Below are positions 4,720 to 34,706 of a DNA stretch of 43,929 nt, in pieces. The position numbers and the translations under genes were made by a program. How positions within the stretch are numbered: the first letter of the stretch is position 1; every line of letters starts with the position of its first letter. The DNA is taken from positions 1 to 43,929 of IMG/VR virus record IMGVR_UViG_2654588006_000005; one strand, given 5' to 3'. This DNA comes from a virus (taxonomy: Duplodnaviria; Heunggongvirae; Uroviricota; Caudoviricetes). Below the pieces are notes generated by a model. It saw only the letters and a program-made list of their open reading frames with translations. It made no database searches and was not told the DNA's origin.

Positions 4720-7700
4720 TCAGCTGATACTGATACCTGCTGTGGATTTTTTCATCACCACAACCAGCAGATCGCTGATACTGGTTGTTGGTGTCCAGTT
4801 ATTCGCTCCTGATGAAGATACGGTGAATGTCAGTGTCAGCGTCCCCTGTCCGGCAGGCATATCTATAACTGAGGAAAATACGCCCTGAGCATCCGTCGTG
4901 GACTGATTAAAAATCTCCTGACCATTGCGGGTCACTCTTAACCGGCAGGTTGAATACCAGTATGACTGTTGGTTATTACTGTTGAAATTCTCATGCTTAC
5001 CACCGCGGAATAACACTGGCGGTATCATGACCTGCCGGTCAAATTTCTGATCATCACTGATTCTTACCGTGATGGTGCCACTGGCATAACTGTTCGTGCG
5101 GGGGAAAGACTTGCTGACCGTTTTGACAATATCGCCTTCAATCTGATTGGCTGACAGTTTCCCCTTAATCTGACAGTTTTCATTAATCGTGACATTGTTG
5201 AGCGTCCCTGAATTTGCATTCACATTACCGCTGATATCCGCATTTTTAGCGGTCAGCTTTCCGTCTGGTGTCAGGGAAAATGCCGGCGGATTTCCACCGC
5301 TGGTAATGGTGGGAGCCGTCAGGCGTTTCAGGAACACGTCGTTCATGAATATCTGATCGCCCTGACCAACAAACATCGGTTTTGTGTTGCCATTCGCAGG
5401 ATTAACCATCGCAATCCTGTCCGCCGCCAGCAGCACCTGACTCTGCATGCCGTCAGGGGTGTTCTCAATACCGGCACCAATACCCGCGATATAAAGGCGT
5501 CCGTCCTGCATCTGCTGCAGCTTCACAGCCCACATGCTGTTCAGGTTATTATTTGTATCAACCTGAACCTTCTGTATCTGCTGAATTGCAGCACTCTGGT
5601 CTTCCAGTTTCTTATTGACGGTCTGCGTGATTTCATTGCTGACATCCGTAATGGACGTCCTGATTTCAGCCAGGTCAGGCGCAAGCTGACCGTTATCAAT
5701 CTGCGTCCACAGATCCTGAGCCAGATGGGTTTTCCCTATCTCGCCTTTGAAAAAATCCAGATAACCGGATGCATCATCACTCGGCTGACCAACAGCCTCC
5801 ACGAATGCCGATTTGCCAACGGTGTTCACACTGCGAACGTAAAAATAATAATTATGGCCCGGCCTGATATTGATACTGGCGGCTATCCAGTACAGCGCCG
5901 TGCCAAGATAGCGTGCTGTGGTTTCAACCTGCCTGATATCCGCAATCCGCTTTTCCGAGAACCAGAACTCAAACTGTACCGTCGGATCATAAACCGCAAG
6001 ATGCGGCGTGGCGGTTATCTGAAAATAGCCCGGCGTCAGCTCAATCCGCGACGGCGCTGCCGGTGCGGCAATCCGGAACGATACCGACGCCGGATCGCCC
6101 TGCTGCCCCCACGCATTTACTGCCCGGACTGTCAGCCTGTAGTTCCCCAGCGCCAGTTGTGTGAAGCGGTAAGTGGTTTCCGTCGTCCGGGCCGTGCTGA
6201 CCAGCCACTCACTGCCGTCATCCGCTGTTACGGTCAGACGGAGCAGGAAGCTCACGCCCTTCACCACCTTCGGCGTGTCCCAGCGCGCCAGCACCTGATA
6301 TTCCCCGCTGTCTGCGGTGACTTCGGCGGTCAGGTGCTGCACCGCTGGCGGCGTGACACCATTCACCGTGCCGCTCTGGTCGCCGTCAAAGTGCGCCCCG
6401 TTATCCACGATGGCTTCTTTTTCCGGTACATGCTGCACGGCGGTGATGGCATACGTGCCGTCGTCGTTCTCACGGATACTCACGCAGCGGAACAGGCGCT
6501 GGCGCAGCGTCGGCAGCTTCAGCCCCCACACGCTGTATTCAGCAACGCCGTCAGGAACACGGCTCACTTTCACCTTCACGCCGTCGGTGACGGACTGAAC
6601 CTCCACGCTGACCGGATTGCCACTTCCGTCAACCAGGCTTATCAGCGTGGTACCGGAGGATGGCAGCGTGATTTCACGGTCGAGCGTCAGCGTCCGGGTC
6701 TGGCTGTTTACCGCCAGCACGCGCCCGCCGGTGCGGATACCGGCATAGTCATCATCACAGATTTCAATGACATCGCCCGGCACATGGCGAAGCCCTTCTG
6801 CGCCCACGCTGAAGTCCACGGTCTGCGTTTCCAGCAGTTCTGTTTTAATCAGCCACAGCCCGGCGCGATGTGCCTGCCCCCGGCTGGTACAGCCAAAGGC
6901 ATCCATCTTCGTGACATTACGACCGTAACGGGCAATGGCCTGCGTGTCCTCCACAAGCTCTGTCGCCGTCTCCCAGCCGTTATCCGGGTCAATCCAGTTC
7001 ACCTCAACGGCATTATGGCGGTCCTTCAGGGCGCTGAAGCTGTAGCGGAACGGCGCGCCATCATCCGGCATCACCACATTACTGCGGTTATAGGTCCACA
7101 CCTTATCTGATGGTCGGTCCTGCACGAACGTCAGCGTCTGCCCGTTCCATACCGGCATACAGCGCATCGCCGAGCAGAAATCACTGAGCACATCCCACGC
7201 CTTGCGCTGTGTGGTCAGGTACGCATTACAGGTGATGCGCGGCTCCGTGCCGCCAAAGCCGTCCGGCACTGACTGGTCGCAGTACTGGCCGATGACATAC
7301 AGCGCCCATTTATCCACATCCGCCGCACCAAGACGTTTCCCCATGCCGTAGCGCGGATGGGTCAGCATATCCCACAGACACCAGGCCATGTTGTTGCTGT
7401 ATGCCGGTTTAAACGTTCCGTCCCAGATACCGCTGTATTGCCGCGTCTGCGGGTTATAGTTCGACGGCACCTGCAGAATGCGCCCGCGCAGATGATAATT
7501 ACGGCTCACCTGCTGGCTGCCGAACTGCTCCGAATCCACCTGCACGCCGACCAGTGCCGTGTTCGGGTAGCACTGTTTCACATCGATGATTTCGGTGTAT
7601 GACGACCAGAGCGTTTTGTTCTGCAGCTGGTCTGTGGTGCTGTCCGGCGTCATCCTGCGCATCCGTATATTGAACGGGCGCGGCGGCAGGTTACCCACCA

Positions 7701-24810: not shown

Positions 24811-25290
24811 TTTTATTCCTACGGGTCTTATTCTGACAATATATCCTGTGTTCCAGACTGCCACATCACCACATCCTGTGCCATTATCTGACTCACATTA
24901 CATACATCGCATCGGGATACAGTAGTAGCACTTTCTGTAATACAGCTTCCGGTTTCTTCCACCATCGCACCGGGATAAATCCGCGAATCATTAACGCGGT
25001 AAAAACCCGGTGTGCATCGTTTTTAATTATTCCCGCACACTCACGCAGAAGGAATTCCCCGTCGGGCTACGGTCATGGTTAATGCGGGAATACGGCGACG
25101 ATACAGCGCAGCTAAAAGGGTAATGGACGGATAGACCGGTTTATTTCATTCTACAGGATTCTGAGTGTCCCCAACTCCCTCCAATCGTCTGAGCTCACCT
25201 GTGTAGTTTTAATTTTCATCAATCCATTTAACTATCGTTTAATTGTTGTCACATAGGATTCTGCCGTTTTTAACAATGCAGGATAATAAG

Positions 25291-25584
25291 ATGAAAAAAA
25301 TGTTGTTTTCTGCCGCTCTGGCAATGCTTATTACAGGATGTGCTCAACAGACGTTTACTGTTGGAAACAAACCGACAGCAGTAACACCAAAGGAAACCAT
25401 CACCCATCATTTCTTCGTTTCGGGAATTGGGCAGAAGAAAACTGTCGATGCAGCAAAAATTTGTGGTGGTGCAGAAAATGTGGTTAAAACAGAAACCCAG
25501 CAAACATTCGTAAATGGATTGCTCGGTTTCATCACTTTTGGCATTTATACTCCGCTGGAAGCGCGGGTGTATTGCTCAAAATAA
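25291..25584 (+). CDS. bor: Bor/Iss-family lipoprotein (97 aa)
   Basis: MKKMLFSAALAMLITGCAQQTFTV...ITHHFFVSGIGQKKTVDAAKICGGAENVVKTETQQTFVNG... near-identical to lambda Bor as recalled; same position between Rz and cos on the opposite strand. Confidence 0.85.
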   Translation: MKKMLFSAALAMLITGCAQQTFTVGNKPTAVTPKETITHHFFVSGIGQKKTVDAAKICGGAENVVKTETQQTFVNGLLGFITFGIYTPLEARVYCSK

Positions 25585-26985: not shown

Positions 26986-27295
26986 TTCTTCCCGGCAGTT
27001 TTCCTTTGTAGGTTATCCACACACTCTGCGCCTCTAAAATTATGGGGCGCTTTTCCGGCGACTGCTCATCCCCTCCACATAACCCGGTAGCAACATCCAG
27101 GAAGACCTGTCTGATGCTCCTTCTGGCTGCTGCCTCATAAAACTCCAGCGCGGCACCTTCAACACGGTCCAGCGAGATGTCCAGGTCAAAAATTTCACCG
27201 TCAAAGCGTTCTTTGTCCTGTAATGCTAAAGTTACCGTAACTTTATTCTCAAAATTGCGGATCCCTTTCACAATCATTTCATAGTTTTGGACCAT
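26951..27295 (-). CDS. lysis-cassette-associated protein, DUF1327/YdfR-like (114 aa)
   Basis: Located between holin and endolysin as ydfR is in the K-12 Qin prophage; family assignment is from memory only. Confidence 0.55.
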   Translation of the reverse strand: MVQNYEMIVKGIRNFENKVTVTLALQDKERFDGEIFDLDISLDRVEGAALEFYEAAARRSIRQVFLDVATGLCGGDEQSPEKRPIILEAQSVWITYKGKLPGRITGSLKTPPKW

Positions 27296-27299
27296 TATA

Positions 27300-27515
27300 T
27301 TACTCTCCTCTCGCAGCCTTTCTTCTGTCTTCTCTGATTTTGAAGTACAGATTCGTCAGATAAGTCAGAAAGCCCAGAACCAGACTTCCCAGTACACCAA
27401 TCGCAGCCCACTGAGACGGACTAACCTGATCAAGCCATTGTAAAAACCAGTAGCCAGCACTGCCTGCGGAGGTGCCGTAGGCAATGCCTGTTGATATTTT
27501 TTCCATCTGATACAT
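27300..27515 (-). CDS. S: class II pinholin, phage-21 S-type, dual start (71-aa antiholin / 68-aa holin)
   Basis: [71 protein letters not shown] with Met1-x-x-Met4 dual-start motif and two TMDs; pairs with a SAR endolysin. Start is derived from the track frame (plus or minus 1 bp). Confidence 0.8.
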
Positions 27516-27624
27516 ATCCCGCCCCAACAGACCTGTGCTACCGGAAAGAAAAAAGGCCATCAGCAAAACTCTGATGGCCTGAATCACCTTTACCAGTCAT
27601 GTATGAAAAAATACGCACAACCAA

Positions 27625-27756
27625 TTGACAATAATTATCATTTTCATTAAAAATACCGCGTAACATTCTTATTTCATGAAGAACCATACCCGCCAGCAAC
27701 CTGAGTAGCAAAAGCTGTTCATCCCCCATATTTTTGCTGGCGGGTTCTTTTTTCTA
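27625..27756 (+). ncRNA. candidate small RNA: near-consensus sigma70 promoter plus hairpin/U-tract terminator
   Basis: TTGACA (27625-27630), 17-bp spacer, TAAAAA(T); about 30 nt later CCCGCCAGCAA ... TTGCTGGCGGG inverted repeat followed by TTCTTTTTTCT; antisense to the late-operon leader upstream of S. Confidence 0.25.
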
Positions 27757-27977
27757 CTGCCCTCCTCCCCAGGAAAAGCATTTCATTCTTTTCTCATTAA
27801 TCGTTACTGGAGAGAAGGCGGGAAAAAGCCAGCTCTTTGGCCCTAAATAACAGCATGGCTTCAGTCCATACAGAATCTGATTTTCCAGCTCACATAATAA
27901 CCAGATGATGCAGTTGCAAAATCTGGCAACATCGGATTATTATGCGCCTGTGAAAATTTCTTCACGTTTTATTCCTT

Positions 27978-28013
27978 GCCGCCCGTGCCTCCCAGCGCGG
28001 GCTTTTTTATCCA
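27978..28013 (+). terminator. candidate intrinsic terminator (plus strand)
   Basis: GCCCGUGC / GCGCGGGC stem (one G-U pair) with CUCCCA loop followed by TTTTTTAT; preceded by a possible TTGCAA-17-TTATTA promoter. Confidence 0.4.
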
Positions 28014-28327
28014 AAAAATACCCCTCCGGAGAGGGGTATCATACAAGGGGATGACCATGATGCATGGTGCCGGGTGCCTCCCGGTGAGTCCGGCATCAGC
28101 ATACGAACCCGCGATTATCCCAGAACTGACTGCTGATTCGCCCCGCCGCTTAGGGGGATTCACCATGCGTTTTTTTATTTACAAACTCTTCGCCAGACAA
28201 ACAACCATTAACTGGCTGAATTGTGAGGTATTTCAATTTTTAGAAAACTGACCAACCTCCGCTTATACGCCGGGCATGGAGCGGATACAAAAAAGCCCCG
28301 CAAAAGCAGATCAGAAGGATTCGTTGT

Positions 28328-28366
28328 AAAAAAAAAGCTGTCAGATTATCGCGCTAATCTGACAGC
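28328..28366 (-). terminator. intrinsic terminator downstream of the methyltransferase gene
   Basis: Perfect 12-bp stem GCTGTCAGATTA / TAATCTGACAGC with 6-nt loop, followed on the minus strand by a run of 9 U. Confidence 0.55.
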
Positions 28367-28608
28367 TACAGCAGGTATCCAAAAACATGGGTGGAAACAA
28401 TAAGTGAGTTAAGAAGACACGGTGTCGGATTTTTACCGATGAGCCGTTGGCGTGGTCAACCGTGACTCGCTTGTATCAACGATGAATTAATGAAGCCAAT
28501 CCTTTGCAGGCTATGTACAACCCACCACATCAGCCCTGCTGCATTGCAGGATACACTGTATCTGTAATCATTATACGGCACAGACATCCCACCAATAATT
28601 GAATTAAT

Positions 28609-29670
28609 TCACAAAATTGTATTTGCTGATAACATACTGATTTCCTGGATGGTCTGATTAAACCGCTCTGTCTCAAGCTCAACACCTAACGCCCGACGCC
28701 CCAGCGCCATTGCTGCTTTTATTGTGGAACCGGATCCCATAAAGAAATCAGCAACCAGATCGCCGGGTCGACTACTGGCATTGATTATTTGCCTGAGCAT
28801 ATCCGCCGGTTTCTCACACGGATGTTTACCCGGGTAGAACTGAACGGGTTTATGCATCCAGACATCGGTATAAGGCACGGAGACTGATACGGAGAAATAG
28901 CGCCGGAGAGATTTAAACTCATCCAGCAATTCAGAATATTTGCGATTCAGTGAATCATAAGATGCCACCAACTGGTGGTGTGGTTGTTCCAGTTGTTGTT
29001 CCTGAAACTTCTCTGCCGCTATACGGGAAAACAGTGCCTGTAACTTCCGGTAGTCAGCCTCATTCGGCAACTGCCACTGACTGGCACCAAACCAGTGGGA
29101 AACCATATTTTTCTTACCTGTGGCTTCGGCAATTTGTTTTGCCGTTATACCCAGTTCGGCACGAGCATCCCTGAAATACGATATCAGCGGTGCCATTATG
29201 TGCTGTTTGAGTTCCCTTTCTTTTGCCACATAGCCGTCACTTTTGCCGCGATATGGCCCCCGGTAATGTTCAGCAAACAGAACGCGCTCTGTGGCAGGAA
29301 AATATGCGCGCAGACTTTCTTTATTACACCCATTCCAACGTCCGGACGGCTTCGCCCAGATGATATGGTTAAGCACGTTGAAACGTTCACGCATCATGAT
29401 CTCAATATCAGATGCCAGGCGATGCCCACAGAACAGGTAAAGGCTTCCGGCAGGTTTCAACACCCGCCAGAACTGGGCCAGACAGTGGTCCAGCCACTTA
29501 AGGTAATCTTCGTCCCCTTTCCACTGATTGTCCCAACCGTTGGGTTTCACCTTGAAGTAAGGCGGATCGGTAACAATCAGGTCAATGGAATCATCAGGCA
29601 GGGACTGAATAAAATGCAGGCAATCAGCGTTGATTAAATCAATACTGTTTATTTTTACAGTGTTTTTCAT
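28609..29670 (-). CDS. orphan DNA amino-methyltransferase (N6-adenine or N4-cytosine, beta-class; 353 aa)
   Basis: DPPY motif near the N-terminus (LIVTDPPYF) and FMGSGST (FxGxG SAM-binding) near the C-terminus; no adjacent restriction endonuclease gene. Confidence 0.85.
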   Translation of the reverse strand: MKNTVKINSIDLINADCLHFIQSLPDDSIDLIVTDPPYFKVKPNGWDNQWKGDEDYLKWLDHCLAQFWRVLKPAGSLYLFCGHRLASDIEIMMRERFNVLNHIIWAKPSGRWNGCNKESLRAYFPATERVLFAEHYRGPYRGKSDGYVAKERELKQHIMAPLISYFRDARAELGITAKQIAEATGKKNMVSHWFGASQWQLPNEADYRKLQALFSRIAAEKFQEQQLEQPHHQLVASYDSLNRKYSELLDEFKSLRRYFSVSVSVPYTDVWMHKPVQFYPGKHPCEKPADMLRQIINASSRPGDLVADFFMGSGSTIKAAMALGRRALGVELETERFNQTIQEISMLSANTIL

Positions 29671-29819
29671 GGATCAGTAAGCGTAACTCTGGTAGGCTCA
29701 CTCTGCTTTTGCGCTAAAGCAGTGGGCCATGGTTCGCTTGTGACCAGTAAGCATGAGCGAATGGCTGGCAGGTGCTACCAACACCCACCAGCCGCCCATT
29801 TTCACAAATTAAAAGCCCT

Positions 29820-30014
29820 TCATTGCTGAAGGCGTCTGTAACAGCCGAACTGGTAATCTGCCAGCCCCGCCATAACCAGCTGGGTCAGTATTAACTGACA
29901 GCGTTCGCGTGAAAGGTATGTGTTTTGTGCTATCTCCCCGACTGTTGCCGGTTTGCCGTTTAATTCATTAAAAACAACTTTCGCCGTTTCTGTCATATCT
30001 TGCTGTTTTAGCAT
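29820..30014 (-). CDS. hypothetical small winged-helix-like DNA-binding protein (64 aa)
   Basis: KPATVGEIAQNTYLSRERCQLILTQLVMAGLA helix-turn-helix-like segment; lies between the AT-rich cargo gene and the methyltransferase. Confidence 0.4.
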   Translation of the reverse strand: MLKQQDMTETAKVVFNELNGKPATVGEIAQNTYLSRERCQLILTQLVMAGLADYQFGCYRRLQQ

Positions 30015-30137
30015 GTCTTTTTACCTTCATGGTTAACATGACATACCAATAACTCTTGTCTAAAAAGCCAGCAAGATAAAAAGTCAGTATTCACGACCAC
30101 CAGCGTGTTTACCGTACTGCACCAATGTTTAATTTAT

Positions 30138-30158
30138 AAAAAAACCGCGAGAACGCGG
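30138..30158 (-). terminator. intrinsic terminator downstream of the AT-rich cargo gene
   Basis: CCGCG-AGAA-CGCGG hairpin followed on the minus strand by a U-tract (plus-strand A7), about 38 nt past the ORF stop. Confidence 0.5.
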
Positions 30159-30195
30159 TAAGTATTGTTAAAAAAAAACAGTAATTTCACTCAAC

Positions 30196-30726
30196 TTATT
30201 TAATACATTCTTTTGCTTGCGCATAATAAATTTTATGAGTATTAGCAAGCTTAACGAAGTTATACTTAACTGCCCCTAACAGGGTTCCAACTCTTGTATG
30301 CCCTTCCATTAAATGAAGCCCTGTTGTATTACTTTTCAGCAAAGCTCGATCTATAAAAAATGGAGGTTCACACCATGTGCCAAAATTACACCAATGCGCT
30401 TTTATTTCATCATCCATAAATACATCGCCTTTACGGGTTGTGAAATCTTCAACGACCTCATGCAAAAAATCAGGGTAAGTAGCATTATCCCCGATAGTTA
30501 AAAAATTTTTAGTGGGAAGTTCAATCAATTTCCATTCGATTTGGTCAATATTAAGATCCCCATAAAGCTCCTGAAATCTGTCATAACCTGCCAATCCATA
30601 ATAAATCTCCTGAATTACAGGAGTGGGGGCGGCGATAGAATATTGCTCACGAAGTATTCTTTCAGCCTCAGGAGCTTTAAATATGGGTCTTTCTGAGAAA
30701 ATAGGCAAAAGATCTCGGTATAACAT
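30196..30726 (-). CDS. hypothetical protein (176 aa) encoded by an AT-rich cargo gene immediately downstream of pR'/tR'
   Basis: Markedly lower GC than flanks; GGGGA RBS; bounded by tR'-like and downstream terminators; no signal peptide; C-terminal EGHTR motif only faintly ParB/Srx-like. Confidence 0.6.
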   Translation of the reverse strand: MLYRDLLPIFSERPIFKAPEAERILREQYSIAAPTPVIQEIYYGLAGYDRFQELYGDLNIDQIEWKLIELPTKNFLTIGDNATYPDFLHEVVEDFTTRKGDVFMDDEIKAHWCNFGTWCEPPFFIDRALLKSNTTGLHLMEGHTRVGTLLGAVKYNFVKLANTHKIYYAQAKECIK

Positions 30727-30740
30727 CCATATCCCCGTGT

Positions 30741-30775
30741 AAGAAAAAATAATTTAACCCGCTCGGCGGCGGGTT
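30741..30775 (-). terminator. tR'-like terminator ending a short 6S-like late leader RNA
   Basis: AACCCGC / GCGGGTT stem followed by AAATTATTTTTTCTT on the minus strand, about 50 nt downstream of the predicted pR' start site. Confidence 0.5.
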
Positions 30776-30814
30776 CTTGGACTCATCAACGGTAGACATA
30801 CAAAGCCCATCGTT

Positions 30815-30850
30815 GGGAAAATCTTATCCATATTTTTTGAGAAATGCAAG
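30815..30850 (-). promoter_or_regulatory. late promoter pR' (and presumably the Q-utilisation site)
   Basis: Minus strand TTGCAT-17-TAAGAT followed by ...CCAACGATGGG..., closely paralleling lambda pR' (TTGACT-17-TAAATT...CAACGATGGG) as recalled; about 35 nt downstream of the Q stop. Confidence 0.6.
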
Positions 30851-30880
30851 CATCATGTCGCCATCTTCGGTGAAAATCAC

Positions 30881-31633
30881 TTATCTCGTCACCTTTCTCA
30901 ATTGTGCTTCAGCGAATGCTTCTTCCTGCCAGCACTTTGTTACCAGTTTATCAATGACGTCTGCATATCCTTTGTACCACTGATAATCAGTCAGGTCTGG
31001 TACCAGCTTCTGGACATGACGTCGTGCCAGTGTGGTCGGTAAACGACTAAACCGGTTTCCATTGCAACGCCCACAAATCTTATAAACAGGCGCGCCATGA
31101 AGCCGGGTTCTTTTTTCATCCAGGACAATGCCTTTACCCTTACACCCTCTGCAAGCCGTGCTGACTTCTCCCTTACCATGGCAATGCTGACATAATTCCT
31201 TCACCCACTCTTCCTTGATAACAGATTCCCCGCTTCTGGAGTGTTTCACCACTTCGCGCAATACACTATGAAATCCAGTACCAGCACAATGCTCACAGCG
31301 AGCCTTACTTGCCGCAGACCTGGAATAATCAGCAAAGGCAAAACTCACAAGGTAAGGGATGATCTGTAACCGGGTTTCTTCACTCAATTTGTTCAATGTC
31401 GGGTTATCCATTGCCATCGCGTAATTGAGCAGACCTTCAATCGCAAACTGAGGATCCTGAACACCAACTTTTGCCAGGAATAAGGCAAACCCAAGCGGTG
31501 CTTTCGACTGCACCATCCCCTGCGCAGCCATCACATCCGTAATCGTTAAACCACCTGAGCCTGTCGCCGGTGCGTCATCGCTCAATTTTGGAGATTTTGG
31601 GGAGTAATATTTTGGTAAGGCTTCAAGGTTCAT
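30881..31633 (-). CDS. Q: late gene antiterminator Q (250 aa)
   Basis: N-terminus MNLEALPKYYSPKSPKLSDDAPATGSGGLTITDVMAAQGMVQS parallels lambda Q; Cys-rich zinc-finger-like region CEHCAGTG...CQHCHGKG...CRGCKGKG. Confidence 0.85.
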   Translation of the reverse strand: MNLEALPKYYSPKSPKLSDDAPATGSGGLTITDVMAAQGMVQSKAPLGFALFLAKVGVQDPQFAIEGLLNYAMAMDNPTLNKLSEETRLQIIPYLVSFAFADYSRSAASKARCEHCAGTGFHSVLREVVKHSRSGESVIKEEWVKELCQHCHGKGEVSTACRGCKGKGIVLDEKRTRLHGAPVYKICGRCNGNRFSRLPTTLARRHVQKLVPDLTDYQWYKGYADVIDKLVTKCWQEEAFAEAQLRKVTR

Positions 31634-33505: not shown

Positions 33506-33895
33506 TCAGGCGGCTGCACCCGCCGTTTTCTCGTACTTACTGATAGTGATCTCGACCTTCCCTTCCGGGATAACCGGTCCCCACTCCACCAGCATTCTTT
33601 TCACCTGGCTGTCGTCTTCCCACACACCCGCGTGGGTCAGGGCGTCAAACAGCGCCTTGTTATAGTTGTCCAGATCGCGGATCCGGTTATCCGGAGGAAA
33701 CAACACGATCTCCACTGAAGCAGGTGCCGACGTTGGTTTCGGCAGACGACGTAACTGCTCAACTATTGCTGTGCACGCCGCACTCTGGAATTTTCGCCCC
33801 GCCGCGCTTATCAGGCTCTTACCAGCAAATGCCCCTTTGTTGGGGTGTCGCCAGTAGGTGTTCACGCTGGGTGGAAAAGGCAGAATCAGCTTCAT
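33506..33895 (-). CDS. rusA: Holliday junction resolvase RusA (129 aa)
   Basis: RDLDNYNKALFDALTHAGVWEDDSQV motif matches the RusA catalytic region (E. coli RusA: [26 protein letters not shown]). Confidence 0.85.
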   Translation of the reverse strand: MKLILPFPPSVNTYWRHPNKGAFAGKSLISAAGRKFQSAACTAIVEQLRRLPKPTSAPASVEIVLFPPDNRIRDLDNYNKALFDALTHAGVWEDDSQVKRMLVEWGPVIPEGKVEITISKYEKTAGAAA

Positions 33896-34218
33896 ACTTT
33901 CAGCCCCCTCTCATGTAACCAGTGGGCTGCACGCAGCCTGGCGTTTTCCTCACCAGCAAGCAGTGCGCGGATAATCCCGGCCACCTCGCTGTCGTCGTCC
34001 TTCACCGCGGTATGAAGCGTGATGCCCCGGGCCACGCCACGCTTTATCGTGATGACGCCTTTTTTCTCCAGTGCGCGAAGATGCTCCACCGCTGCATTCA
34101 CTGAACGGTATCCCAGCATGGTAGCCACCTCCTGATTGGTTGGCGGGAAGCCACGTTCTTTCTGGTAAGAAATCAGCATATCCAGCACCTGCTGCTGGCA
34201 TTGAGTTAACGTCGTCAT
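33892..34218 (-). CDS. LexA DNA-binding-domain homolog lacking the S24 peptidase domain (about 108 aa)
   Basis: LTQCQQQVLDMLISYQKERGFPPTNQEVATMLGYRSVNAAVEHLRALEKKGVI aligns with LexA [53 protein letters not shown]; no Ser/Lys autoprotease region follows. Confidence 0.65.
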   Translation of the reverse strand: MTTLTQCQQQVLDMLISYQKERGFPPTNQEVATMLGYRSVNAAVEHLRALEKKGVITIKRGVARGITLHTAVKDDDSEVAGIIRALLAGEENARLRAAHWLHERGLKV

Positions 34219-34706
34219 TAAGCCCCCACGTAATTCCCTGACAGATACCACTCTTCACCCGATACAGCGCGCTTGCTGCTTTTCCGTAAACACCGCTCAC
34301 GACGCGCAAGAAAATTGTTTCGCTCTTGCTGGGAGTGGCTTTCACGGAATGCCGCCATCCACACCGTTGCAGCACGACGGTATAAGCCCCTGGACTCCAG
34401 TTCTTCCGCCTGGCGGGTCAGGCACAAAATCACCCGGGGATCGTTAGTGCCGACATAGAAATTGCGCACAGGTCTGGATTCACGAACTGGTTGCGGTTCC
34501 GGCTCCTGCGGTATCTCAGTCAGCCGCGGGAAATGTCTGCGTGTATCCCCTTCACAACGGTGAGCCACACGCCCACTCTGACGTAACTTGCTTGCTGACT
34601 GCAGAACGCGCTGTCGTGAGTAACCTGCAAAAGCATCCGCAATGTCTCCGGAAGTACACCCCGGATGGGCTTCAATGAATTTCTGAACGTCATTCAAAAG
34701 ACTCAT
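34218..34706 (-). CDS. hypothetical protein (162 aa), translationally coupled to the replication initiator
   Basis: ATGA overlap with the upstream gene stop; N-terminal winged-helix-like segment; function unknown. Confidence 0.5.
   Translation of the reverse strand: MSLLNDVQKFIEAHPGCTSGDIADAFAGYSRQRVLQSASKLRQSGRVAHRCEGDTRRHFPRLTEIPQEPEPQPVRESRPVRNFYVGTNDPRVILCLTRQAEELESRGLYRRAATVWMAAFRESHSQQERNNFLARRERCLRKSSKRAVSGEEWYLSGNYVGA

Follow-up and report, generated by a model that had tools for sequence, protein, structure and literature searches.

A conserved structured leader precedes an M.EcoGII-type adenine methylase gene in the late-operon cargo region of a lambdoid prophage

The methylase locus

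The stretch of DNA analysed here (the window) comprises positions 1 to 43,929 of the IMG/VR virus record IMGVR_UViG_2654588006_000005, a lambdoid prophage of the tRNA-Arg/DLP12 site. This report concerns a module on its minus strand, located between the late promoter pR' and the lysis genes, which consists of a 353-amino acid (aa) methylase gene, an upstream open reading frame (ORF) of 64 aa, and, between them, a conserved leader that ends at the start codon of the methylase. The features of the module, listed in order of position, are as follows:

28609..29670 (-): gene of an M.EcoGII-family beta-class N6-adenine methyltransferase, 353 aa, ATG start (ORF; PF01555; identity to M.EcoGII and Anc291; PADLOC)
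29668..29809 (-): conserved structured leader ending at the methylase ATG (alignments; covariation; covariance model, 145 bits)
29704-29721 (-): leader helix P4 (covariation counts)
29733-29761 (-): leader helix P3 (covariation counts)
29763-29793 (-): leader helix P2 (covariation counts)
29803..29833 (-): hairpin T0 and a U-rich tract, which overlap the small-ORF stop codon (terminator-like site; compensatory stem changes)
29820..30014 (-): gene of a 64-aa winged-helix protein, phrog_331, ATG start (PHROG E = 5.8e-35; AlphaFold model)

The region of the methylase and the small ORF is 100% identical to that of E. coli 20Ec-P-124, and DNA of the methylase region is present in 2252 of 5426 complete E. 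coli genomes. Related loci are referred to below by numbers preceded by L.

The methylase is a member of the M.EcoGII family

The Pfam domain N6_N4_Mtase (PF01555) covers residues 29-340 of the methylase (E = 4.6e-42), and PADLOC matches the protein to its MTase_II model (E = 8e-151). Motif IV (DPPY) is found at residue 35, followed by the target recognition domain (TRD, taken as residues ~160-237) and then by motif I (FMGSG) at residue 310, and this order of motif IV, TRD, and motif I places the enzyme in the beta class, as a first-pass annotation had proposed on the basis of DPPY followed by FxGxG. The same annotation held that no restriction enzyme accompanies the methylase; indeed, no restriction-enzyme-like gene adjoining it was found in a Pfam scan of its neighbours or by PADLOC, which matches only methyltransferase models at the locus and leaves two small proteins without any match. 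The gene is, therefore, a prophage-borne orphan, and it is located behind terminators. The first-pass coordinates of both ORFs are exact, although the minus strand was not mentioned there.

Relatives of solved structure are the beta-class enzymes RsrI, MboIIA, and CcrM, with similarity confined to the catalytic and S-adenosylmethionine (SAM) motifs. The likeness to M.EcoGII is of a different order: the full-length identity is 80% (280 of 348 residues), with two gaps that both fall outside the TRD, while the identity to the reconstructed ancestor Anc291 amounts to 88% with the TRD aligned gap-free, both values being calculated against sequences machine-read from Supplementary Table S1 of PMC11551740, which contain visible errors (e.g. 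NHHIW for the natural NHIIW). M.EcoGII methylates adenine in any context of DNA and, more weakly, on RNA (PMC5778455), and Anc291 is experimentally active and non-site-specific (PMC11551740). Homologues of the family are tabulated as 'nonspecific' in methylome tables and add no motif to lysogen methylomes (PMC6602927). By its sequence, the enzyme is an ordinary member of the known M.EcoGII family of any-adenine prophage methylases. The proposal of a promiscuous adenine methylase, made in the first-pass annotation, fits this placement by homology, and its statement that the specificity is unknown can be replaced: because the homology to M.EcoGII and Anc291 includes the TRD, the enzyme probably has no sequence specificity.

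M.EcoGII and M.EcoGI, from prophages of E. coli O104:H4 C227-11 (Murray et al. 2018, PMC5778455), share with the window enzyme the DPPY motif, a central four-helix TRD, the FxGxG motif, and a length of ~350 aa. The window allele of 353 aa differs from M.EcoGII in its last 6-14 codons, which are divergent, and in the DNA that follows. Most E. coli relatives part from the window sequence at 28652, within the last 14 codons of the methylase.

A conserved leader accompanies the methylase

The 149-nucleotide (nt) spacer that separates the two ORFs has diverged less than the small ORF. Across 15 diverged loci, the leader is 82% identical, as compared to 50% at the third-codon positions of the methylase. 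A first scan of viral contigs seeded with the methylase returned only relatives of 97-100% identity, and the diverse loci came from a scan with a SUPREM-headed alignment. The leader is non-coding, since indels in its loops break every reading frame. A 33-aa ORF within it, starting from AAATGGGCGG, was considered and rejected, as the loop indels are not multiples of three and the frame in L005 meets a stop after 7 codons; a leader-spanning ORF that ends in ATGA exists only in L131 and L147.

The covariance model places the leader immediately 5' of the methylase ATG in 76 of the 88 sources searched, and this obligate position is retained even where the methylase is only 61-65% identical to that of the window. 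When IMG/VR was scanned with a pattern of the leader only, 120 contigs were retrieved, and a methylase lies 40-100 nt downstream in 117 of the 118 that could be evaluated. Furthermore, close relatives of M.EcoGII (93-95% identical) carry the same leader and the same small ORF, neither of which is mentioned in the M.EcoGII literature covered. The leader, which the first-pass annotation had overlooked, is the invariant partner of the methylase, unlike the small ORF.

Rfam 15 holds no match at E <= 1 over 29668-29833; cmscan of 27000-31200 reported only STnc100 and a sub-threshold SgrS, both elsewhere. A SAM or S-adenosylhomocysteine riboswitch and the prophage small RNAs (sRNAs) AgvB, AsxR, Esr41, and STnc100 were each considered as the identity of the leader and discarded, as none has an Rfam match there. 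A literal search for the leader sequence in 8 million full texts returned no paper. The leader and its winged-helix companion thus appear to be undescribed in Rfam and in the literature covered. The enzyme, in short, is a known kind of gene in a well-known position, and the leader with its optional companion is the new part.

Covarying helices and the methylase start codon

The helices of the leader are supported by covariation. In P2, 9 of the 10-12 pairs change on both sides, with one pair seen as UA, AU, and GC; in P3, one pair is found as CG (28 occurrences), AU (14), and UA (10), and another as UA (41) and CG (14). P4 and the T0 hairpin covary likewise, the latter with compensatory changes at pairs 35-59, 36-58, and 37-57. 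Over the whole leader, 88.5% of the cells are paired, as opposed to at most 47% when the partners are slid by 1-3 columns, and 14 of the 28 pairs are compensatory. In L121, L124-L129, L133, L139, and L148, whose methylases are ~64% identical, the small ORF is present and the leader (~130 nt before the ATG) keeps only the P1'/P2 hairpin.

No Shine-Dalgarno sequence precedes the methylase ATG, and an invariant GAUC stands 2 nt before the AUG. Codons 1-10 of the gene are under strong synonymous constraint, with a codon entropy of 0.40 versus ~1.3 elsewhere. Within the leader, GGUCACAAGCG (29735-29745) has complementarity to the start region, CGCUUACUGAUC (29672-29683). Indeed, the helix that joins the 3' arm of P3 (GGUCAC-AAGCG) to the start region (CGCUU-AC-UGAUC), termed P6, reaches 82.6% pairing, with compensatory changes at four pairs, while slid controls stay at or below 48%, and this start-sequestering helix is present in the minimum-energy fold of most sequences. 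P6 and P1' (AUGGG/CYCRU) exclude P3 and P1 (UGGGC/GCCCA); the leader can, therefore, adopt two global folds, one of which buries the start region. As modelled, this arrangement would have the logic of an RNA switch or attenuator in which access to the start is gated. A further helix, P5 (AGUGAGC/GCUUACU), was examined as a universal start-occluding element and set aside, being 73% paired with registers that differ among clades, and P6 is the better supported of the two.

The 64-aa winged-helix protein

The small ORF possesses a Shine-Dalgarno sequence of its own (AAGG, 30024-30027). The first-pass annotation had described its product as winged-helix-like, and this description is borne out by an AlphaFold (AF2) model of high confidence (predicted local distance difference test score of 90.7) with three helices followed by a beta-hairpin wing. 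Matches in Foldseek are to generic winged-helix domains only (IclR, MarR, an O-methyltransferase dimerisation domain, and the RNA-binding domain of SelB), while in Pfam there are only sub-threshold matches to TrmB, MarR, and DprA_WH; source names for the protein are 'TrmB family' and 'DprA-like wH'. The alignment has one invariant cysteine (C39), and a second only in the main allele.

Among 23 species-level enterobacterial loci fetched by the small ORF alone, 22 have a methylase that starts ~150 nt downstream. The exception, L020, has kept the small ORF and the leader and has lost the methylase; at 4980-5302 of this locus, an N-terminally altered small ORF and the leader (85.9 bits) are retained, with unrelated ORFs in the place of the methylase. 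The reverse is also found, in that pR'-tR' of L119, L131, L132, and L147 is immediately followed by the leader and methylase, the small ORF being absent, and L136 and L150 look like precise deletions of the small ORF in which the leader and methylase are kept. The 64-aa protein may be an optional accessory of the methylase module, and since the small ORF is so tightly dedicated to the methylase, a regulatory role is possible.

Two other identities for this protein were considered and rejected. A restriction-modification C-protein is contradicted by the winged helix, which is not an XRE-type helix-turn-helix (HTH), by the lack of an endonuclease nearby, and by the lack of a palindromic C-box; in the locus alignment, no conserved palindrome was seen in the box upstream of the small ORF. 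The controller role suggested in the first-pass annotation does not hold as stated for the same reasons of fold and missing restriction gene, and because the ORF is absent in several lineages, and what is left of it is the accessory role that the tight linkage to the methylase allows. Homology to orf-64 of lambda, which occupies the same slot with the same length, was likewise rejected, as there is no sequence similarity. The lambda ORF (L188, lambda 44621-44815), 64 aa long and in the slot after pR', is itself unexplained.

Late promoter and terminators

Transcription of the module was considered in relation to the following features:

30881..31633 (-): antiterminator Q, 250 aa (Pfam PF03589, E = 1.7e-53)
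30806..30849 (-): late promoter pR' (TTGCAT-17-TAAGAT, 30821-30849) with the downstream element CAACGATGGG (comparison with lambda)
30756..30775 (-): original tR' stem (SfV alignment and terminator scan)
30138..30159 (-): intrinsic terminator closing the cassette of the 176-aa ORF (terminator scan; SfV alignment)
30039..30120 (-): conserved 5' segment of the module, preceding the small ORF, with the box CTTGCTGG-N-ACAAGAGTTATTGGTATGTCA (conservation across three Q/terminator types)
28328..28367 (-): strong intrinsic terminator with a 13-bp stem and T9, 240 nt beyond the methylase stop (terminator scan)

The element CAACGATGGG that follows the -10 of the window pR' is identical to that of lambda pR' and lies at the same distance. 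The original tR' stem is intact, while its U-tract has been replaced by an inserted AT-rich cassette that encodes a 176-aa ORF. Judging from its sequence, the terminator that closes this cassette would now act as the effective tR'; past it, the window sequence rejoins that of Shigella phage SfV, in which pR' is followed by the tR' hairpin and a T-run in the absence of the cassette. In phages that have no small ORF, the equivalent of T0 is tR' itself, which directly abuts the leader in L131, L147, and L119. The methylase module, therefore, starts just downstream of a terminator, whatever the type of Q. Because the module is placed behind a terminator, it is expected, on the lambda model, to be transcribed only by Q-modified polymerase, and its position suggests that the methylase would be silent in the lysogen.

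That the methylase lies between pR' and the lysis genes, as first annotated, is confirmed by the positions of pR' and of the holin, lysozyme, and Rz genes (27300-25616). In contrast, the gene does not itself end in the strong terminator assigned to it, which is separated from the stop codon by 240 nt; in SfV, a terminator directly follows the methylase gene. The segment from the methylase stop to the strong terminator region (28237-28608, minus strand) has no match in the phage collection, and a 43-aa ORF at 28456-28587 has no family match.

A weak promoter, an operator, and an RNA element are all conceivable roles for the region 30039..30120. A sequence of 10 nt close to the methylase start, ACCAGAGTTA (29684-29693), is found again in the box that precedes the small ORF (30039-30075); this repeat is exact in most related loci and reads ACAAGAGTTA in the window. 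L136 (2795-2860) looks like a precise deletion of the small ORF between ACCAGAGTTA-type repeats, which hints at a route by which the ORF is gained or lost.

A model for expression of the methylase and its alternatives

Taken together, we regard it as probable that the module is a cargo of the late operon that encodes an M.EcoGII-type methylase, is dependent on Q, is gated by its leader, serves in anti-restriction, and carries the winged-helix protein as an optional accessory. In the lysogen, constitutive transcripts from pR' would stop at 30138-30159 and then at the weaker T0, and the methylase would be silent. Upon induction, Q would render RNA polymerase resistant to terminators, and the modified transcript would run through the winged-helix ORF, T0, the ~140-nt leader, and the methylase into the lysis genes. 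The leader would then constitute a second gate, with mutually exclusive helices (P1/P3 versus P1'/P6) as in an RNA switch; since the methylase start has no Shine-Dalgarno sequence and its start region is paired with the leader, we propose that translation is low or conditional. The enzyme would methylate most adenines of the replicating phage DNA before packaging, and the progeny would thereby be protected, in the next host, against adenine-sensitive restriction systems. The winged-helix protein would most likely modulate the leader gate, as Com activates the translation of mom in phage Mu.

A bolder form of this model, which we hold only tentatively, is that the leader represents a new class of cis-regulatory RNA switch dedicated to non-specific adenine methylases, in which two exclusive folds set the access to the start codon and the trans factor is the winged-helix protein, a metabolite such as SAM, or methylation of the leader by the enzyme itself.

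A number of observations weigh against the model. Covariation cannot choose between the two folds (A and B), because P1 and P1' are both nearly invariant, while P5 and the distal half of P6 occur in different registers in different clades. The shuffle controls overstate significance, because the sequences fall into few clades. In the group L121-L148, the leader is shorter and escapes the covariance model, and it may be a minimal version of the element. Among the 137 cells of P3 that are not Watson-Crick, 128 are C.A or A.C and 4 are G.U, and the former would be G.U on the opposite strand; moreover, in three of four representatives, the fold of the antisense strand is at least as good as that of the sense strand. 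Some phages do without the winged-helix gene. The methylase differs from M.EcoGII at 20% of its residues, and the activity of the window allele is assigned by homology. Finally, we know of no demonstration that enzymes of the M.EcoGII family protect virion DNA in vivo.

One alternative concerns the strand of the conserved structure. It may be that the structure belongs to a cis-antisense sRNA on the plus strand, or to a DNA-level element, by which the toxic enzyme is repressed much as in type I toxin-antitoxin systems. The mismatches of P3 would become G.U pairs on that strand, the antisense sequence gives a clean three-way junction with z-scores of -4.45 versus -3.37 in L108 and -5.72 versus -3.43 in L118, and convergent sRNAs are known in the pR' cargo slot (PMC4104026). 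P2, however, contains 56 G.U against 12 A.C, which favours the mRNA strand; P2 and P3 conflict, and the strand call from such counts was, therefore, abandoned. What renders the antisense explanation unlikely in our view is the remaining evidence: many of the pairs that hold together P2, P1', P5, and P6 are G.U when read in the sense orientation, every clade has the end of the element exactly at the AUG, T0 carries its U-tract on the sense strand, and scans found on the plus strand neither a promoter-like site near 29560-29700 nor a T-tract after the hairpin. Furthermore, the synonymous constraint on the methylase stops at codon 10, so there is no conserved -35 element within the gene; an antisense promoter in the 5' end of the methylase was rejected on this ground and for want of a scan match. 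Control may instead reside at the DNA level upstream, with the winged-helix protein acting as a transcriptional repressor or activator at the box before its own gene and timing methylase transcription as C-proteins do. Its predicted fold is of a DNA-binding type, its linkage to the methylase is strict, and the ~35-bp box, which includes TTGCTG-17-TATCTG, is conserved regardless of Q type. Nevertheless, this role also seems improbable, as the protein is not an XRE-type HTH and has only the sub-threshold Pfam matches to TrmB, MarR, and DprA_WH, there is no restriction gene to time and no conserved palindrome in the box, the putative -10 is poor and the site was not reported by the promoter scan, and several phages with the leader and methylase lack the gene or have it precisely deleted.

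Two further alternatives concern the enzyme rather than its control. It could be an orphan that, like Dam or CcrM, recognises a specific sequence motif and acts epigenetically in the lysogen; most solved beta-class relatives (RsrI, MboIIA, and CcrM) are site-specific, the NCBI label reads 'site-specific DNA-methyltransferase', and a fifth of the residues differ from M.EcoGII. We consider this highly improbable, given that the likeness to the site-specific enzymes does not extend beyond the catalytic and SAM motifs, that the whole TRD aligns gap-free to the non-specific M.EcoGII and Anc291, that homologues contribute no motif to lysogen methylomes (PMC6602927), and that the gene is behind terminators. 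Alternatively, the substrate in vivo could be RNA, either host or phage transcripts or the enzyme's own leader via feedback by N6-methyladenosine, instead of phage DNA. M.EcoGII does methylate single-stranded RNA and RNA:DNA hybrids in vitro (PMC5778455; PMC7544214), and the gene is fused to a structured, adenine-containing leader. The initial rate of M.EcoGII on RNA is, however, ~90-fold below that on DNA (11.12 versus 0.12; Table S3, PMC11551740), and DNA is the substrate on which Mom and the analogous Mu-type enzymes act in blocking restriction (PMC3299994), which makes RNA a very unlikely principal target.

Comparison with known systems

The order of Q, small ORF, methylase, and lysis genes is common to SfV, mEp460, the cdtI phage, Stx2c phages, and phage 1720a-02, all of which have the same module as the window. 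SfV (orf47-orf48) has Q, a terminator, the 64-aa ORF, the methylase, and the lysis genes in this order with 97% nucleotide identity, and differs in that its tR' is free of the 176-aa cassette and its methylase is followed directly by a terminator; the Shiga toxin (Stx) phages differ in having tRNA and stx genes after the methylase. The pR'-tR' region of lambda has the same layout of -35, spacer, and -10, with a short terminated transcript before the cargo and the cargo before S (PMC4104026). The window Q, in contrast, is of another family (PF03589), and the U-tract of its tR' has been replaced by an ORF cassette with its own terminator.

The closest functional parallel may be the com-mom operon of Mu, in which the start of a toxic adenine-modification gene that blocks restriction is covered by a hairpin, and a small protein encoded upstream opens it. 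Both systems combine an enzyme harmful to the host with a small ORF of regulator type upstream and, in the window putatively, late expression and control at the level of the start. The resemblance would be functional only: Com is a four-cysteine zinc finger and the window protein a winged helix with one invariant cysteine, the two are not homologous, and binding of RNA by the latter is hypothetical. Also, mom of Mu is controlled by C and Dam, whereas the window operon is presumably Q-antiterminated. Hia5 and its relatives are Dam-like rather than beta-class. In Mu-like prophages, non-specific adenine methylases occupy the mom slot behind com homologues and are silent until induction (Drozdz et al. 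2012, PMC3299994), the operons compared being com-hin1523, hia5, and nma1821. The C-proteins of type II restriction-modification systems offer another likeness, in that a small protein of DNA-binding type is encoded just upstream of a methylase. They are, however, XRE-type HTH dimers that bind C-boxes and time the restriction enzyme, whereas the window has a dispensable winged-helix protein, no restriction gene, and no C-box.

M.EcoGII is a widely used reagent for chromatin footprinting and RNA methylation, and a large proportion of the genomes of E. coli, Shigella, Salmonella, Klebsiella, and related bacteria carry its gene family in their prophages, Stx phages among them. M.EcoGII itself is prophage-borne and silent in the lysogen, and attempts to express it from an unregulated promoter failed, such expression being harmful to cells (PMC5778455; PMC7544214). 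How such an enzyme is silenced and released is unexplained in the literature covered, and the module offers a testable answer in three parts, namely terminators of tR' type with dependence on Q, a start without a ribosome-binding site within a covarying RNA, and an optional winged-helix partner. If the leader is a real switch, it would found a new family of regulatory RNA with hundreds of natural variants, it would give the com-mom logic of DNA modification against restriction a second, independent example, and it would explain how ~40% of E. coli genomes tolerate a gene that is harmful when unregulated. If it is not, the locus would merely be another copy of a well-known prophage methylase.

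Neighbouring genes and further observations

On the lysis side, the methylase is followed by genes for a holin, a DUF1327 protein, lysozyme, Rz, and Bor/Iss. On the side of Q, its neighbours are the 64-aa winged-helix ORF, the 176-aa ORF of unknown function, Q, DUF968, KilA-N, RusA, a LexA-like gene, and PerC. SfV and 20Ec-P-124 carry a Dam-like methylase between the LexA-like and PerC genes, and a second, Dam-like methylase was, therefore, expected in the nin region of the window. This candidate was rejected, as no ORF for a Dam-like 'phage N-6-adenine-methyltransferase' is present between these two genes (33892-34706, minus strand, the only interval scanned).

Between the methylase and the holin, at 28009-28197 on the minus strand, the sequence matches the prophage sRNA STnc100 (RF02076) over its whole length, with 114.5 bits against a gathering score of 47. 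It has its own terminator at 28017-28040, and the surrounding ~300 nt are common to many Stx phages. The sub-threshold SgrS-like match (27549-27645, minus strand; 24.8 bits, gathering score 37) covers a terminator-like hairpin just upstream of the holin start and is probably due to chance. Finally, a homologue of the Bor/Iss serum-resistance lipoprotein, a typical lysogenic-conversion gene, lies beside Rz on the opposite strand (25243-25584, plus strand).

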